Positions 84 to 6,641 of a DNA stretch of 6,641 nucleotides are shown piece after piece (positions within the stretch are counted from its first letter, which is position 1; every line of letters begins with the position of its first letter). Position numbers and translations under genes: made by a program. Source of the stretch: a virus. Its lineage: Duplodnaviria > Heunggongvirae > Uroviricota > Caudoviricetes. The stretch spans positions 1 to 6,641 of the IMG/VR virus record IMGVR_UViG_2681813261_000025; one strand, written 5' to 3'. Under the pieces are notes generated by a model that saw only the letters and a program-made list of their open reading frames with translations, did not search any database and was not told the DNA's origin.

Positions 84-876
84 ATGGACGATTTATCGGT
101 ATACGCGAGATCATTGGATAAGGCTAAATACTATGTTTACTGTCTCTATGATANNNNNNNNNNNNNNNNNNNNNGATACAGAAGACAAGATGAAAAGACC
201 GTTTTACATAGGAAAAGGCAAATCGACTCGTTGTCTCGATCACATCAAGTATCCCGATGACTCTCCCAAATCCATGCGGATCAAAGAACTTTTGGCTAAT
301 AAAAAATTAGGCATAGATATACTTCGTCATGGTATGGATGAAACCACAGCCAAACTTGTTGAGGCGACATGCATCGACCTTATGGGGGTCGGAGAGCTTA
401 CGAATAAGGTACGAGGAAGTGGTTCCATGATGGGCAGAATATCACTGGACGCCTACCATCACTTAGTGCTGCAAGAGGAAACTGAAATTGCTCCTGAGCA
501 CGCCGGTCTTGCCTTCCTGCTAAACAGCACCTACAAGTCAGGAATGTCCGCTCTGGCATTATATGAAGCTACGCGTGGCGTATGGGCAAAGGTTCCAAGA
601 GACGAGAATCTCAAATATGCCTACGCTACATATGGTGGGCTGATAATGGAAGTTTATCAGATTGAATGCTGGGTCAAAGCCGGTTCTCAGCAGTACTTTA
701 CAAGGGATATAGCTCTTGGCCCCGACACAAAACGTTATGAATTTGTTGGCAGAATAGCCGATGAGCATATTAGAAAACTGTATGTAGGCAAATTAATCAA
801 GAAGCCACCAAGCTACGGTAGCCCTTTTGTGAAGGTTGGGGTGGTTAGGACTGAACATAGTGTTAGCGCGGCATAA
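84..876 (+). CDS. GIY-YIG nuclease-domain protein with an unassigned ~180-aa C-terminal domain; the ORF is broken by the N-run and the frame differs on either side of it
   Basis: The ORF track calls 133..876. Upstream, the ATG at 84 opens a different frame reading MDDLSVYARSLDKAKYYVYCLYD up to the N-run, where YVYCLY looks like the GIY half-motif. After the gap the track frame reads RPFYIGKGKSTRCLDH, matching the YIG-x-x-K...R...H half of a GIY-YIG core. The two halves only join if the true gap length is not 21 nt, so the 5' boundary and exact length are uncertain. A hairpin terminator follows the stop. Confidence 0.5.
154..174. other. Run of 21 N (assembly gap or masked bases) inside the GIY-YIG ORF
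   Basis: Literal n characters at 154..174. The reading frame that carries the protein motifs changes across the run, so the run does not represent the true number of bases. Confidence 0.95.
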
Positions 877-1956: not shown

Positions 1957-2274
1957 TGGAGAGTTCCCTTTGCGTATATAATTATCGTCTGAAACAACTT
2001 GTTTTCTTATATGTGATATAGCCTAAATGCCTACGGCTGCGGTGTAAAGGTTAAATGGTAGGTTGTGATTAACAATTGGCAATCATAGCTTGTATTTGTC
2101 TGTTGAAAAAAGTAACAATGACCTCTATATTACAAGTACGGTGATATGCCGTACACAATTTGATAATGCACACGTAATGGGCTATAGCCTTTTAAAGTAA
2201 TTTTTGAGTCGAAAACTCAGTTTGAACAGAGGAGATTGATGGCCTTCCTACATCACGGCCATCAGGAGGAATAC
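1957..2274. promoter_or_regulatory. Divergent control region between parA and the toxin-antitoxin operon; candidate par centromere/operator and TA operator
   Basis: 318-bp AT-rich intergenic region flanked by divergent start codons. It contains a perfect 10-bp palindrome GGCTATAGCC (2180..2189), an inverted repeat GTACGG-N7-CCGTAC (2136..2154), a small palindrome AAACTCAGTTT (2211..2221), and the recurring words GTGATAT (2013, 2141) and TATAGCC (2018, 2183). A weak sigma70-like candidate is TTGATA (2160..2165), 17-bp spacer, TATAGC (2183..2188), overlapping the palindrome. No transcription start can be determined from sequence. Confidence 0.35.
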
Positions 2275-2544
2275 ATGTCAGCACTAAAAAAGCAGCGCAT
2301 CGATTTGAGATTAACCGATGACGATAAAAGCATCATCGAGGAAGCTGCCGCAATGTCTAACCAGAGCATTACTCAGTTTATGGTTAGCAGTGCATCTGAA
2401 CGTGCCGTGAAAGTTATAGAGCAACACCGTAGACTAGTTCTGAATGAAGAATCCTGGAATCTGGTTATGGACGCTATAAGCAATCCTCCGGCACCGAACG
2501 ACAAGCTGAAACGAGCTGCTGATCGTCTGAAAAGCATGGAGTAG
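2275..2544 (+). CDS. ataR: DUF1778-type antitoxin partnering a GNAT toxin (AtaR/TacA/KacA family)
   Basis: The 89-aa product from the ATG at 2275 (MSALKKQRIDLRLTDDDK...NPPAPNDKLKRAADRL) has the length and N-terminal basic strand typical of this family, including a conserved-looking NPPAPN segment. A strong AGGAGG (2264..2269) sits 5 nt upstream. The ORF track's longer start at 2236/2239 has a poorer spacing. It lies immediately upstream of the GNAT toxin gene. The family call is firm; the specific symbol is by recalled similarity. Confidence 0.8.
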   Translation: MSALKKQRIDLRLTDDDKSIIEEAAAMSNQSITQFMVSSASERAVKVIEQHRRLVLNEESWNLVMDAISNPPAPNDKLKRAADRLKSME

Positions 2545-2551
2545 TTTACTC

Positions 2552-3073
2552 GTGAGCAATACAACGATAGAGATTTTCTCTGGAGAGAAAGATTATGATC
2601 TAAACGGTTTTGATTGCGGCGAAGAGTCACTAAACGCCTTTTTAGCCAACCACTTAAAAAGGCAGCATGAGGGAAAAATTCTTCGTGCTTATGTGCTTTG
2701 CACTCAAGAAGAAAGGCCAAAAGTGTTAGGATATTACACTTTGTCAGGTAGTTGTTTTGAAAAGGAGTCCTTACCTTCAAGAAGCAAACAAAAGAAGGTT
2801 CCTTATCGGAATGTTCCAAGTGTTACTTTGGGTAGGCTGGCTTTGGACAAGTCCCTTCAAGGTCAAGGATTTGGCTCAATGCTTGTAACACATGCAATGC
2901 GCGTTGTGTACAATGCATCTCTTGCTGTAGGCATTCATGGACTTTTCGTTGAGGCGTTAAATGACAAAGCCAAGGCGTTTTATAAAAGTTTAGGCTTTAT
3001 CCAGCTGGTTGGTAACAACGAGCGTTCTTTGTTCTATCCTACAAAATCTATCGAAAAATTGTTCGAAGAATAA
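2552..3073 (+). CDS. ataT: GNAT-family N-acetyltransferase toxin (AtaT/TacT/ItaT family, aminoacyl-tRNA acetylating)
   Basis: 173-aa ORF starting at GTG 2552, 7 nt after the antitoxin stop. The N-terminal DYDLNGFDCGEESLNAFL and the acetyl-CoA-binding-like RLALDKSLQGQGFGSML (Q/R-x-x-G-x-G/A pattern) are characteristic of GNAT toxins paired with DUF1778 antitoxins. The sequence closely resembles what I recall of E. coli AtaT; this was not verified by search. Confidence 0.85.
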   Translation: MSNTTIEIFSGEKDYDLNGFDCGEESLNAFLANHLKRQHEGKILRAYVLCTQEERPKVLGYYTLSGSCFEKESLPSRSKQKKVPYRNVPSVTLGRLALDKSLQGQGFGSMLVTHAMRVVYNASLAVGIHGLFVEALNDKAKAFYKSLGFIQLVGNNERSLFYPTKSIEKLFEE

Positions 3074-3076
3074 TGT

Positions 3077-3098
3077 GTTCCCCTCATTTGAGGGGAAC
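3077..3098. terminator. Hairpin between the convergent toxin gene and the lysis-like operon (possible bidirectional terminator)
   Basis: 9-bp stem GTTCCCCTC (3077..3085) / GAGGGGAAC (3090..3098) with a 4-nt loop, sitting between the stop at 3073 (+) and the stop at 3106 (-). There is no long T-tract on either side, so terminator strength is uncertain. Confidence 0.4.
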
Positions 3099-3105
3099 TT
3101 CGACA

Positions 3106-3321
3106 TCACCAACCACAAACCCTCTCTCCCATCGTATTGTGAAAAAGGATTTGGCGTTCGGTTTCTTCAGTCATTACATCATTATTGCTGATATAGATAG
3201 GCTCAGCCCCATCGCAGAACAACACGCTGGCTGTTTGTGGTTTAATGACGCACCCACTTATCATACAACTCACGATGAACGGCAGAAGCATCTTTCTGAC
3301 GTATTTTACTGCTCGTCTCAT
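3106..3321 (-). CDS. Putative outer-membrane lipoprotein, o-spanin-like (Rz1-like)
   Basis: 71-aa ORF with a basic n-region (MRRAVKYVRK), a hydrophobic h-region and a lipobox-like ISGC (signal peptidase II type). Its 5' end overlaps, out of frame, the 3' end of the upstream TM protein gene (3242..3321), as in overlapped spanin pairs. It is the last gene of the lysis-like cassette. Confidence 0.45.
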   Translation of the reverse strand: MRRAVKYVRKMLLPFIVSCMISGCVIKPQTASVLFCDGAEPIYISNNDVMTEETERQILFHNTMGERVCGW

Positions 3322-3493
3322 TCACCACTTTCACTGTGTTTTGAAGTCGTTTTCTGTCTTCCTGTTTTGCCTTCTCTTCCATTGCTCGTCGCGCCGCATT
3401 CCCGCCCATCGTGTAAGCGCCGACAAGAACGAAAAGAACGGCAGCCAGCGTAATCAAAGCAACTTTTAGCTTTGTCATCAGGCTGCCTAGCAT
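3242..3493 (-). CDS. Putative inner-membrane i-spanin-like protein (short; N-terminal TMD plus charged helical region)
   Basis: 83-aa ORF with an N-terminal transmembrane segment (LKVALITLAAVLFVLVGAYTM) followed by a highly charged probably helical region (RRAMEEKAKQEDRKRLQ). Its ATG lies 1 nt after the stop of the endolysin-like gene and its 3' end overlaps the lipoprotein ORF. It is shorter than classical Rz proteins, hence the low confidence. Confidence 0.4.
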   Translation of the reverse strand: MLGSLMTKLKVALITLAAVLFVLVGAYTMGGNAARRAMEEKAKQEDRKRLQNTVKVVNETSSKIRQKDASAVHRELYDKWVRH

Positions 3494-3494
3494 A

Positions 3495-4187
3495 TTAGAC
3501 CATCCCTTTCTGGTGTTTTCTTACCTGCGACCAGGCAATGAATCCTGCCACAACAATAGTGGCAATACCGAAGATGATGCGTACTGTATCCCCGCTAGAG
3601 ATATGACCTTGTGCTTTATCCATAGCAGCGGAAACCTGCGGCATAACATCGGCCAGCTGCGCCAGACCAATACCTGCTGTAACAGTTGCGCCTGCGGTTT
3701 CTTTAGTTACAGGAACAGCCTTCACGGTTTTCACCGGCTTAACAACGCCAGCTCGACGCAGACCTTCCTCAATAACTTCTGCCGCATACCAGGTGTTCAG
3801 CGTTTTTAGCGGGCCTCGGCCATTCTCGTGGCGAATGATTGCCTCAACCAAAGGTCGAAGGATGTCGTAATCATGCAGATCGATGATCATGTCTGCGGTT
3901 ACACCAACGGCTTTAGACACCTCATTAATGTAGGCGTCAGTATTGTTTTCATTCGGCGGTGCCCAGCGTTCAATAACTTCACGAATGGTATCGATACTTG
4001 TGCCGTCTTTTGCGCGACGTTTATCGTGGTAGGTAATTAGAGTCACCGCCAGCGCACGAATCCCCCAAACAGGGTCTTTAAACGTGCAAAAGCGCGGTTC
4101 GTCTGGATTCGCAACCAGACCTTGCCACGGTGATCCTTTATCAAGATTACCGGGGTTATTATTACGAATGCCTCTCGGAGTCTTCAT
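3495..4187 (-). CDS. Putative endolysin-like lysis protein of unrecognised catalytic family, with a C-terminal transmembrane anchor
   Basis: The ATG at 4187 is preceded by AGGAG about 7 nt upstream; the ORF track's GTG start at 4214 adds 9 residues. The product begins MKTPRGIRNNNPGNLDKG, has acidic conserved-looking stretches, and ends in a single hydrophobic segment (IIFGIATIVVAGFIAW). Its position between a small membrane protein and a spanin-like pair suggests the muralytic role, but I cannot match a catalytic motif (lysozyme, transglycosylase, amidase, M15, CHAP). Confidence 0.4.
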   Translation of the reverse strand: MKTPRGIRNNNPGNLDKGSPWQGLVANPDEPRFCTFKDPVWGIRALAVTLITYHDKRRAKDGTSIDTIREVIERWAPPNENNTDAYINEVSKAVGVTADMIIDLHDYDILRPLVEAIIRHENGRGPLKTLNTWYAAEVIEEGLRRAGVVKPVKTVKAVPVTKETAGATVTAGIGLAQLADVMPQVSAAMDKAQGHISSGDTVRIIFGIATIVVAGFIAWSQVRKHQKGMV

Positions 4188-4200
4188 CCTTGATCTCCTG

Positions 4201-4524
4201 TTATTGCAGTCCACTTTTTACGCCATACGCGGCTAACCCCAAAAGCAGTGCGGTAATAATGAACGACGTTATTTTAGAAACAATGCCGCCAAAGAACCCA
4301 CTTGAGATGGAATCTAACCGGTTAAGGAGTTTGTCCAGATTGGAGTGTTGAATACTATGTTGCGCCGGGGTCATATCACCAAAGTAGGTTTTCAGCTGAT
4401 CATTGACCTCCTGGCCAATTTCTTCACGTAGCTCTTTACCTAATTTGCCAACAACCTCCCGAGCAACGATCGCGGCAATACGCTCAACTTGCTCTGTTGT
4501 AACGCCCGCCATCTCGTTCGACAT
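4201..4524 (-). CDS. Small tail-anchored membrane protein, holin-like by position (first gene of the lysis-like cassette)
   Basis: The second in-frame ATG at 4524 has an excellent RBS (GGAGGA, 5-nt spacer), so the first ATG at 4536 is unlikely to be used. The product has a ~75-aa hydrophilic N-terminal part and one C-terminal TMD (FFGGIVSKITSFIITALLLGLAAYGV). This topology is atypical for canonical holins, so the functional call is tentative. Confidence 0.4.
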   Translation of the reverse strand: MSNEMAGVTTEQVERIAAIVAREVVGKLGKELREEIGQEVNDQLKTYFGDMTPAQHSIQHSNLDKLLNRLDSISSGFFGGIVSKITSFIITALLLGLAAYGVKSGLQ

Positions 4525-4583
4525 GTTTTCCTCCATGAAAAGTCAAATCGGGATGGCGGATTTATATCATATTTTAACCATTT

Positions 4584-4620
4584 GTAGTAGGTATATACTT
4601 ACCTACTATATATCTTGCAA
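4584..4620 (-). promoter_or_regulatory. Candidate promoter with an embedded perfect palindromic operator upstream of the lysis-like cassette
   Basis: The 121-bp AT-rich intergenic region 4537..4657 contains a perfect inverted repeat TAGTAGGTA (4585..4593), 6-bp spacer TATACT, TACCTACTA (4600..4608). Read on the - strand there is a sigma70-like TTGCAA (-35), a 17-bp spacer and TATATA (-10), with the -10 lying inside the palindrome. A second small dyad GCAGAT-ATA-ATCTGC (4640..4654) sits just after the tfa stop. Confidence 0.4.
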
Positions 4621-4657
4621 ACTAATCGTTGTTAATAATGCAGATATAATCTGCCCC

Positions 4658-5247: not shown

Positions 5248-6150
5248 CTACTTAATATCAAAGACAGTATGTTGTTTATTGAGTGTATGGGTGTGAGCAC
5301 CAACAGTGATGCCCCTTCCGTGATTATATGCGCCAGTGGCGATATTGCCTCCGGTATTTTCCGGATTAATCCGGTGTATATGCGAACCAGGGCGAAACCG
5401 GTTATTAGCCTGATGTTGTATCAGTACATCATCAGCCTGATGTTCAGGGTTAATACAGATCTGCCCTGAACGTGAGCAATACGTCCGATAATCGCCGCAT
5501 CCAATATATTTAGTATCCGCATAACGGCAAACAGAATTACCCGGACAGTATGCATATGTGCCAAATACTGCCGACTGGCGGGAGTGTGCGTATTCCCAGT
5601 TAATTGCTTCTGTTTTTTTATTAAAGTTATCCCACGCCTGCTTCATCTGCCGGGCAACGCTTTCAAACGGAACCTGACCACATCCGGCCCCCATTGCAGG
5701 GAATACCACCGTCTTTATTTTCCTGTCTGTCGTTGCGTTTTTATTGTGCTGAAAGATGGCAAGTAAAGCGGCCCAGGTTGCGTTATATACAGAGTCTGTT
5801 CCGTCAATTGTCAGCGGAACACGCATTGTTGGCGCATGTACCAGCCAGGGGTGATGATTATGCCCCGTTTCAATAACAAATGCAGAACCTACAGGCTGCT
5901 CGCCTAGATATTCACGAAGAATATGATTCTGAACGCGGGACTGTAACTGAGTACCGAAGAATGCGGTAATGGCGGCATCAACGCCGCCATCCATCAGGCC
6001 GAAACTATTTGCCGCACTTACCATGCAGTCAAATTCTCTGATTGTTTCAAATGGCTTTCCGACAATATTCACATTATCTGCGTTTGCAAATACCCGCTTA
6101 AATGCTTCAGCCATTTCTGTTACTGGTGCAGAAAGAATGAGCGTAATCAT
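5248..6150 (-). CDS. Macro-domain (ADP-ribose binding/hydrolase-like) protein fused to a Cys/His-rich tail-fibre-repeat-like C-terminal module
   Basis: 300-aa ORF whose ATG overlaps the tail-fibre stop (ATGA at 6147..6150), with GAGG 7 nt upstream. The N-terminal ~185 aa carry macro-domain motifs: [21 protein letters not shown] (compare the canonical xxVNAAN...GGGGVDGAI), [20 protein letters not shown], and [14 protein letters not shown] (compare AFPxISTGxYGxP). The C-terminal ~110 aa have six Cys ([10 protein letters not shown]...[16 protein letters not shown]) and GSHIHRI / GAHTHTL repeats of the same GxHxH type as the adjacent tail fibre. The ORF ends 8 nt before tfa. Confidence 0.8.
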
Positions 6151-6641
6151 GCAAGCCTCACAATATAGTTAAATGCGATGTTTTTGACGGTGTTTTCCGC
6201 GTTACCAGCAGCGTTAACGGTGATGGTGTGTCCATGTGAACCAATCGCAACGGAGTGCGTATGAGCACCAATACCGACAGTATGTGCGTGAGCACCTGCG
6301 CTTGCGGCACTACCGGATAACGAGTGGGTATGTGCTCCATCTGATGATGTCTTCCCTGATATACGGGCCATACCTTGGCCACCTTGCCGTGGTACAACTG
6401 GTTTGTTTGTGACTGAAACCTGGGTATAACCGTTAGGAAAGAGATCACCATCATTAGTATTCGCATATGGTCCAGAACTATGGTGTTGGTGCCCACCTGC
6501 ACTATTTGCAGTCCCGCTAATACTATGGGTATGCGCCCCGGTGTTATTCGTGGATTTGGTTCCGTAATCAAACGACGATGTGGTTTTCGTCCCCAAATCC
6601 GTACTGGATGCGCTGGCGCTGTGGGTGTGCGATTTAATGCC
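6147..6641 (-). CDS. stf: Side tail fibre protein, C-terminal portion (5' end lies beyond the window)
   Basis: The reading frame is open to the window edge ([15 protein letters not shown] precedes the track's TTG start at 6596), so the gene is partial. The product has Gly/Ser/Thr-rich sequence with multiple GAHTHS / GAHAHT / GSHGHT repeats typical of T4 gp37 / lambda Stf-type fibres, and ends [15 protein letters not shown]. It is in the same orientation as tfa and upstream of it. Confidence 0.85.

Follow-up and report, generated by a model that had tools for sequence, protein, structure and literature searches.

A C-terminally anchored endolysin and a tail-anchored phrog_5093 protein in the predicted lysis module of an SSU5-like phage-plasmid

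Endolysins that carry a transmembrane domain (TMD) at the C-terminus represent an unsolved case in phage lysis. Such enzymes are known from experiments with M4Lys, an endolysin of the Chi-like phage BSPM4 (PMC7143992), and from structural work on the endolysin of the Hafnia phage Enc34 (PMC8943055), and an independent case, a GH24 endolysin with a C-terminal TMD, is known from the Acidovorax phage AP1 (PMC8879335). According to its authors, M4Lys is 97-99% identical to the Chi enzyme. Its catalytic domain has glycosidase activity, and M4Lys alone lyses Escherichia coli in a reaction that is not blocked by azide; M4Lys without its TMD causes no lysis, and the TMD alone is only bacteriostatic (PMC7143992). 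The Enc34 endolysin's catalytic domain degrades Gram-negative peptidoglycan, the full-length protein is toxic, and Glu131, Trp79 and Tyr95 are catalytically important (PMC8943055). In homologues of the Enc34/M4Lys class the membrane domain is needed for lysis of E. coli, which requires neither another phage protein nor SecA, and the catalytic domain by itself is harmless. The route by which the catalytic domain reaches the cell wall was left as an open question by the Enc34 authors (PMC8943055), and we found no later work explaining it in the literature searched. Here we analyse positions 3106..4524 of a viral DNA stretch of 6,641 nt (IMG/VR record IMGVR_UViG_2681813261_000025; hereafter the window), in which a first-pass annotation had suspected an uncharacterised lysis mechanism based on a C-terminally anchored muralytic enzyme. 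The anchored enzyme is borne out by our data; the attribute 'uncharacterised' is not, since the class is already described in BSPM4, Enc34 and AP1.

Sequence comparison identifies region 3106..4524 as part of an SSU5-like phage-plasmid, namely its late lysis module, which is of the Chi/Enc34 type with a different first gene. Over positions 3000-4650, identity amounts to 99.2% with Escherichia phage Cyrano (the phage-plasmid pLF82, hosted by E. coli LF82) and to 82% with Salmonella phage SSU5. In PLSDB, 879 plasmids from Escherichia, Klebsiella, Enterobacter and Salmonella hosts match the window in part, 19 of them over at least 80% of the window. All four open reading frames (ORFs) of the cassette were verified at the positions given in Table 1; they are located on the minus strand and are closely spaced or overlapping. 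The gene order reminiscent of holin, endolysin, Rz and Rz1, which had been noticed before, is real. It is identical in all 80 IMG/VR loci retrieved, save two in which the contig ends first, and it recurs in SSU5, Cyrano and related records. An arrangement kept across all these loci is far beyond chance. Chi (gp37-gp40) and Enc34 (ORF38-41) show the same order of a small one-TMD protein, a C-terminal-TMD endolysin, a short inner-membrane spanin (i-spanin) and an overlapped outer-membrane spanin (o-spanin). The lambda S-R-Rz-Rz1 genes share the functional order of membrane protein, muralytic enzyme and two-component spanin, but lambda combines a soluble endolysin with a three-TMD holin and has embedded spanin genes, whereas those of the window overlap. 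Scans of all four cassette proteins against Pfam and NCBIfam gave nothing usable. In the GenBank phage records of SSU5 and Cyrano the genes are labelled holin, endolysin, Rz and Rz1 by position, the first one as 'putative holin' or 'Holin'.

The second gene encodes a protein of 230 amino acids (aa), which on the basis of its sequence is assigned as an Enc34/M4Lys-type endolysin of the peptidoglycan glycosidase class with an apparently intact catalytic site. It matches the Enc34 endolysin's catalytic domain (PDB 7Q47) over residues 3-151 (phmmer, E=6.8e-54) and the family phrog_873 'endolysin' (E=6.5e-89). A match to a non-lytic family had been named beforehand as the finding that would speak against a lytic role, and the protein fell into an endolysin family instead. 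The similarity covers the full length, with 59% identity to Chi gp38 and 58% to Enc34 ORF39, and extends through the linker and the pair of C-terminal helices into the basic tail. Nor does the protein lack an assignable catalytic motif, as had been stated. It has a PHA02564/Enc34-type domain in which Trp75, Tyr86 and Glu121 are conserved in invariant columns of a four-way alignment, corresponding to Trp79, Tyr95 and Glu131 of Enc34 (residue numbers of the Enc34 paper, which equal the RefSeq numbering minus 1). The catalytic Glu, Trp and Tyr, the linker, the two-helix membrane domain and the basic tail are thus common to this protein, Enc34 ORF39, BSPM4 M4Lys and Chi gp38, and in Enc34 and Chi the endolysin gene is likewise located upstream of a homologous o-spanin gene. 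Differences to these systems concern the host element, which is a phage-plasmid and not a virulent Chi-like siphovirus, and the upstream gene, which is unrelated. Across the SSU5-like IMG/VR loci (L006-L085) the endolysin is 87-100% identical to that of the window, except for the divergent L020, L021 and L037.

The same catalytic domain also occurs within tape-measure, internal-core and injection proteins (phrog_7182, phrog_2276, phrog_992; Gp29 in PDB 9VVP), and the database search returned many 'internal virion protein' matches. By this token the PHA02564 protein could be a virion-associated enzyme that pierces the wall during infection, and the region would not be a lysis cassette, a doubt that the first-pass annotation had also raised. 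We regard this as highly improbable. In the window the domain belongs to a stand-alone 230-aa protein with a membrane hairpin, encoded between a lysis-associated gene and a spanin pair, and its orthology extends over the full length to enzymes that have been shown to lyse cells from within.

The endolysin is composed of the catalytic domain, a Lys-rich linker and a C-terminal membrane domain, for which two hydrophobic helices were found in place of the single TMD reported earlier. Both helices were called by hydropathy alone. The distal helix (residues 201-221) is strongly hydrophobic (Kyte-Doolittle ~2.2), and the proximal helix (residues 164-185) is weakly hydrophobic (~1.0-1.2) and rich in Gly, Ala and Thr, a composition like that of a signal-anchor-release (SAR) domain. 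Both are conserved in Chi gp38 and Enc34 ORF39, and the proximal helix is also present in a distant homologue from locus L098. The charges (linker +4/-1, loop +1/-2, tail +3/0) fit an N-in/C-in hairpin in the window endolysin, and the charge distribution in Chi does so as well. Accommodated in this way, the Lys-rich linker and the basic tail would lie inside and the acidic loop outside, which is the topology of class II holins. In the phage 21 pinholin S21-68 and class II holins, two helices lie in N-in/C-in orientation, the first of them being weakly hydrophobic and Gly/Ala-rich, and the C-terminal tail is basic. The layout of the endolysin C-terminal module resembles theirs, but no sequence homology was detected, and the module of the window is fused to a 160-aa enzyme. 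A search with the C-terminal 85 aa of the endolysin retrieved fragments of the same endolysin only and no stand-alone homologue. The weakly hydrophobic, Sec-exported N-terminal SAR domain that defines SAR endolysins is absent, as the N-terminus MKTPRGIRNNNPGNL is hydrophilic and hydrophobic segments are found at the C-terminus only. A Tat or other N-terminal signal was rejected as well, because a hydrophobic N-terminal region is lacking.

The distant homologue in L098 (3368..4063; phrog_873, 2.8e-29) combines a PHA02564 domain with the hairpin. It reads IIVMYNG in place of IIRHENG, by which the catalytic Glu is replaced, and the Trp of the ERWAPP motif is missing; the hairpin and a phrog_5093 partner are retained. 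This enzyme may be inactive or may use another residue.

The first gene encodes a 107-aa protein which belongs to phrog_5093 (E=2e-68), a family listed in PHROG with function unknown; no model in Pfam or NCBIfam was matched. Its only strong hydrophobic segment is located at ~76-102, preceded by a soluble N-terminus of ~75 aa and followed by a C-terminal tail of five residues (KSGLQ; median of the phrog_5093 family, nine). AlphaFold supports this architecture of a long soluble N-terminus and a single C-terminal TMD, which had been described correctly before. With a diverse alignment it predicted two helices, 10-48 and 53-103, at a pLDDT of 88.5; a shallow alignment of close relatives gave a pLDDT of 47, so that the diverse one was needed. 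The break between the helices falls on an invariant Gly-Asp-Met-Thr turn, and the second helix continues into the membrane segment. Foldseek comparison of the model with BFVD and PDB revealed no match below E=1, a two-helix rod being uninformative in this respect. An exhaustive profile (HMM) search of 1.84 billion cluster representatives yielded 60 phrog_5093 relatives of ~100-140 aa with the same architecture. In their alignment (A6), Gly49, His56 and His60 are invariant and Ala21 and Asp71 nearly so; the consensus reads YFGDMxPxxHxxQHxR...D..S..F.G and is followed by the C-terminal TMD. The strongest conservation thus resides in the soluble motif FGDMxxxxHxxxHxR and not in the TMD only. Most members carry the His56/His60 pair as HxxQH and several as HxxEH, the latter being the 'inverted zincin' spacing. 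With Gln as the commoner residue, these proteins are unlikely to be peptidases, but might conceivably sense metals or protons. Of the 50,697 phage genomes deposited, tblastn detected phrog_5093 in 12 SSU5-like records only, also when distant members served as queries; by this search, the family is absent from cultured phages other than the SSU5-like ones.

The first-gene slot of the Chi and Enc34 cassettes is occupied by Chi gp37 and Enc34 ORF38. Orthology of the 107-aa protein with either was rejected, as direct alignment gave no real similarity, and the 107-aa gene is best described by sequence as a non-orthologous replacement. The architecture is reversed, too: in Chi gp37 and Enc34 ORF38 it is the TMD that is N-proximal and the soluble helical domain that is C-terminal. 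RefSeq labels both proteins (L003 2150..2488 and L005 39819..40163, respectively) 'Rz-like spanin'; they are really a putative holin or 'lysis protein B'. With respect to the properties expected of a holin, the 107-aa protein is a small membrane protein with at least one TMD encoded beside the endolysin. It has no charged C-terminal tail and is not a member of a described holin family. Because of these two failures it should not, judged by its present sequence features, be filed as a holin. The former designation 'holin candidate' fits its position, but neither its C-terminal tail nor its family membership.

To characterize the genomic context of phrog_5093 beyond the SSU5-like elements, we recovered ~15 independent non-SSU5 metagenomic contexts. 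The full 31-sequence alignment of the family was too divergent for locus retrieval, and the first sub-alignment yielded SSU5-like loci only; a scan of a single metagenome gave one contig that ends directly past the phrog_5093 gene. In all non-SSU5 contexts the phrog_5093 gene heads a co-directional string, mostly abutting or overlapping the next gene, and is preceded by tail genes. Four endolysin families follow it. The first is a Peptidase_M15_3 endolysin, succeeded by a 72-96 aa protein with two hydrophobic segments and then by spanin-like genes (L087, L090, L094, L095, L102, L104; L105 is cut). A GH108 plus PG_binding_3 endolysin followed by a 58-aa TMD protein is found in L103. In L088, L091-93 and L099 a protein with three TMDs comes first, followed by a phrog_669 endolysin, which has a hydrophobic segment at its N-terminus, and then by overlapped spanins; the 3-TMD protein of L099 matches phrog_8226 'holin' (4e-10). 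Finally, L098 encodes the PHA02564 endolysin with C-terminal hairpin and a phrog_1026 i-spanin, and an extra membrane protein is absent. As relatives head cassettes with four endolysin families, phrog_5093 is a genuine component of lysis cassettes, independent of the endolysin type. Furthermore, in all ten complete cassettes whose endolysin lacks a C-terminal hairpin, a small protein with two or three TMDs (one in L103) is encoded separately, and no such gene is present in the cassettes of the two lineages with a hairpin endolysin, the SSU5-like elements and L098.

The small proteins after the M15 endolysins (L087 4755..4973, L090 4260..4493, L094 718..1059, L095 3791..4066, L102 3839..4093) have two hydrophobic segments and a common motif, A.GP.NA.I..W...E.AAL. 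They match only phrog_6637 (function unknown), and weakly, and are probably an undescribed holin family.

One might suppose that the 107-aa protein plays no part in lysis, but is an accessory of the tail-fibre module, a superinfection-exclusion protein or a moron at the junction of tail and lysis genes, the endolysin and spanins being sufficient. In line with this, the gene always comes after tail-fibre, tail-tip or assembly genes, the homologous M4Lys lyses cells on its own (PMC7143992), and locus L086 has no endolysin within 3 kb downstream. On the other hand, the upstream neighbours vary (tail fibre, gpJ, GP38, a radical-SAM enzyme), but the downstream neighbour is nearly always an endolysin or a holin-like gene in the same direction, abutting or overlapping, and this for four unrelated endolysin families. 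We therefore think it improbable that the protein stands outside lysis.

Its sequence and the work on its homologues show that the endolysin is tethered to the inner membrane through its two-helix C-terminal domain. We propose that the hairpin would make the membrane lesion, so that the enzyme would bring along its own 'holin'. The charge pattern of the hairpin, the complementary occurrence of hairpin and separate holin-like gene and the M4Lys data suggest that the lesion is supplied in this way. The phrog_5093 protein would be a dedicated lysis-cassette factor for the membrane step. It would more likely act as a timing partner (antiholin-like or a co-holin regulator), through its soluble His-x3-His motif and its TMD, than as the sole hole-former, because separate holin-like genes coexist with it when the hairpin is missing and because its soluble motif is conserved. 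Once the wall is cut, the spanin pair would destroy the outer membrane according to the published spanin model. Small accessory lysis proteins that set timing or release and do not form the lethal hole are found in T4 (RI/RIII), P1 (LydB) and Mu (gp25, a 'releasin'), and their role is that proposed here for phrog_5093. To our knowledge, these proteins are not homologous to phrog_5093, and tail-anchoring together with a His-x3-His motif has been described for none of them. Overall, we slightly favour the view that the hairpin is the hole-forming or membrane-compromising element and phrog_5093 an accessory timing factor instead of the only holin.

The main competing explanation takes the 107-aa protein as the real holin or pinholin. 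The endolysin would then be exported in an inactive state, tethered by its C-terminal helix as by a 'C-terminal SAR' domain, and released and activated once the holin depolarizes the membrane. This is the solution towards which the first-pass annotation inclined, it was suggested by the Enc34 authors (PMC8943055), and the AP1 study proposes the same for its C-terminal-TMD GH24 endolysin and reports an interaction between holin and endolysin (PMC8879335). The parallel to AP1 HolAP-LysAP includes the requirement of the endolysin C-terminal TMD for lysis from within and an upstream 111-aa one-TMD protein, which is harmless alone and modulates lysis; the catalytic domain (GH24) and the holin (Phage_holin_2_3), however, are both unrelated to the window proteins, and export in AP1 is reported to be Sec-dependent (PMC8879335). 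The 107-aa gene is also placed like a holin gene, first in the cassette and directly upstream of the endolysin, and the Gly/Ala/Thr-rich proximal helix is SAR-like. Against this, no route is known by which a C-terminal signal could export a 160-aa N-terminal domain. Lysis by M4Lys is insensitive to azide and needs no partner, and co-expression of its own first gene, which is not homologous to phrog_5093, slightly delayed lysis (PMC7143992). Finally, phrog_5093 proteins have no charged C-terminal tail, belong to no holin family and coexist with other holin-like genes in relatives. In view of these points we consider a pinholin of this kind somewhat unlikely.

Several observations count against a lesion-forming hairpin with phrog_5093 as its accessory. 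The first position of a cassette is the usual seat of true holins. The cassette itself is devoid of a second holin-like gene, a statement that concerns the cassette and not the rest of the ~110-kb element, which was not searched for a canonical holin. PHROG and Pfam scans of the hairpin alone hit no holin family, and the idea of a fused holin thus has no support from homology. The proximal helix is only weakly hydrophobic, and the linker of the L098 endolysin is not basic. In the M4Lys study a single TMD was counted, and the topology was predicted to be N-out (PMC7143992). For the 107-aa protein the topology cues conflict, as tail-anchoring points to N-in, but the net basic C-tails and net acidic N-domain point to N-out according to the positive-inside rule. 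The complementarity of hairpin and separate holin rests on ~12 lineages, which is a small sample. Experiments on any phrog_5093 member or on an SSU5-like cassette were not found in the literature searched.

The enzyme class and the cassette type are already known. In the literature searched, we found no description of the tail-anchored phrog_5093 partner or of its spread over different types of endolysin. A wider and more tentative suggestion, in which we place rather less than even confidence, is that phrog_5093 represents an unrecognised portable class of tail-anchored lysis-timing proteins, which fits into the cassettes of at least four unrelated endolysin families and in SSU5-like elements is the sole partner of an endolysin with a hole-forming hairpin. 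If so, a genetically tractable E. coli system would be at hand to study by what route an enzyme with a C-terminal anchor gets to the wall when neither Sec nor a classical holin is involved, with phrog_5093 as a specific candidate partner, whose soluble motif is sharply conserved and which accompanies four kinds of endolysin. In E. coli, Klebsiella and Salmonella, phage-plasmids of the SSU5 type are very common, and Cyrano is reported to be induced under genotoxic stress in strain LF82 (PMC9928086). Being common and inducible, they are a convenient system for tests of the mechanism.

The last two genes of the cassette are predicted from their sequences to be an ordinary overlapped two-component spanin pair, consisting of an inner-membrane protein and an outer-membrane lipoprotein, in agreement with the earlier reading. 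The i-spanin has an N-terminal TMD (hydrophobic at ~residues 8-27) and a short periplasmic domain and matches phrog_1026 'Rz-like spanin' (E=7e-25). It shares only 17-21% identity with Chi gp39 and Enc34 ORF40, but the length and a C-terminal KW.R motif are common. The o-spanin (phrog_1275, E=1.3e-24) shows a signal sequence and a lipobox, MRRAVKYVRKMLLPFIVSCMISG|C (ISG|C, Cys24). Its gene begins inside the i-spanin gene in another frame and extends past its end, with an overlap of 80 nt. Identity amounts to 45% with the Chi and 44% with the Enc34 o-spanin, SGC, Cys36 and Cys69 being invariant. Kongari et al. (2018) placed the SSU5 o-spanin in the 'Chi' family; SSU5 is absent from their Chi i-spanin family. 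Across the 80 SSU5-like IMG/VR loci, the i-spanins and the o-spanins each range from ~62 to 100% identity. As these identities vary in mosaic combinations, the sequences suggest a frequent exchange of spanin alleles.

Table 1. Positions of the cassette genes, their domains and adjacent repeats in the window
Feature	Position	Strand	Remarks
Small membrane protein, phrog_5093	4201..4524	-	107 aa; ATG, GGAGG Shine-Dalgarno; ORF open to an earlier in-frame ATG at 4536
Endolysin, predicted Enc34/M4Lys type	3495..4187	-	230 aa; ATG, AGGAG Shine-Dalgarno; alternative in-frame upstream GTG at 4214
Endolysin catalytic domain, PHA02564 lysozyme-like	3738..4187	-	residues ~1-150; Glu121 codon 3825..3827
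Endolysin proximal helix	3633..3698	-	residues 164-185; hydropathy, hydrophobic moment
Endolysin distal transmembrane helix	3525..3587	-	residues 201-221; followed by the basic tail RKHQKGMV
i-Spanin (Rz-like)	3242..3493	-	83 aa; ATG 1 nt past the endolysin stop; phrog_1026
o-Spanin (Rz1-like) lipoprotein precursor	3106..3321	-	71 aa; Cys24 codon 3250..3252; phrog_1275
Perfect hairpin with 10-bp stem	3077..3098		separates the cassette end from the convergent GNAT toxin gene; on the minus strand, terminator-like
Inverted repeat	4580..4613		upstream of the first cassette gene, within the gap of 133 nt

In RefSeq plasmid records the cassette genes are annotated as 'hypothetical' or 'membrane protein' and the o-spanin is omitted, so that this large group of plasmids in effect lacks an annotation of its lysis module. 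In plasmid pTB212 (L107), for instance, the endolysin is called 'membrane protein' and the o-spanin is not called. The 'Rz1' coding sequence of Cyrano (L001 6107..6226) comprises only the 120-nt non-overlapping 3' part of the gene and lacks the lipobox.

A scan of the region upstream of the cassette for a sigma-70 consensus promoter revealed none. The genes found upstream of the cassette are those for tail-fibre assembly, a macro-domain protein and a tail fibre. Homology to Cyrano stops at about the inverted repeat listed in Table 1, which might mark a junction of modules or serve in regulation; at this place the Tfa and macro genes are replaced in Cyrano by a P1 S-like tail fibre. The macro-domain protein of 300 aa (5248..6150, minus strand; PF01661, 5e-19) belongs to phrog_2613 (function unknown), and its gene is wedged between those for the tail fibre and the tail-fibre assembly protein, an unusual place for a macro domain. 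Its C-terminal ~100 residues contain His-rich motifs like the 'GAHTHS' repeats in the C-terminus of the adjacent tail fibre (6147..6596). On the other side, a TacA-like antitoxin gene (2236..2544, plus strand; PF08681, 8.6e-26) and a GNAT toxin gene (2552..3073, plus strand; 'KacT' in Cyrano) form a TacA/TacT-type pair between the partition genes and the cassette. The pair is convergent with the cassette and shares with it the hairpin at its end. Farther away, a run of N at 154..176 breaks the ORF 133..876, which is annotated as a 'hypothetical protein' in Cyrano.

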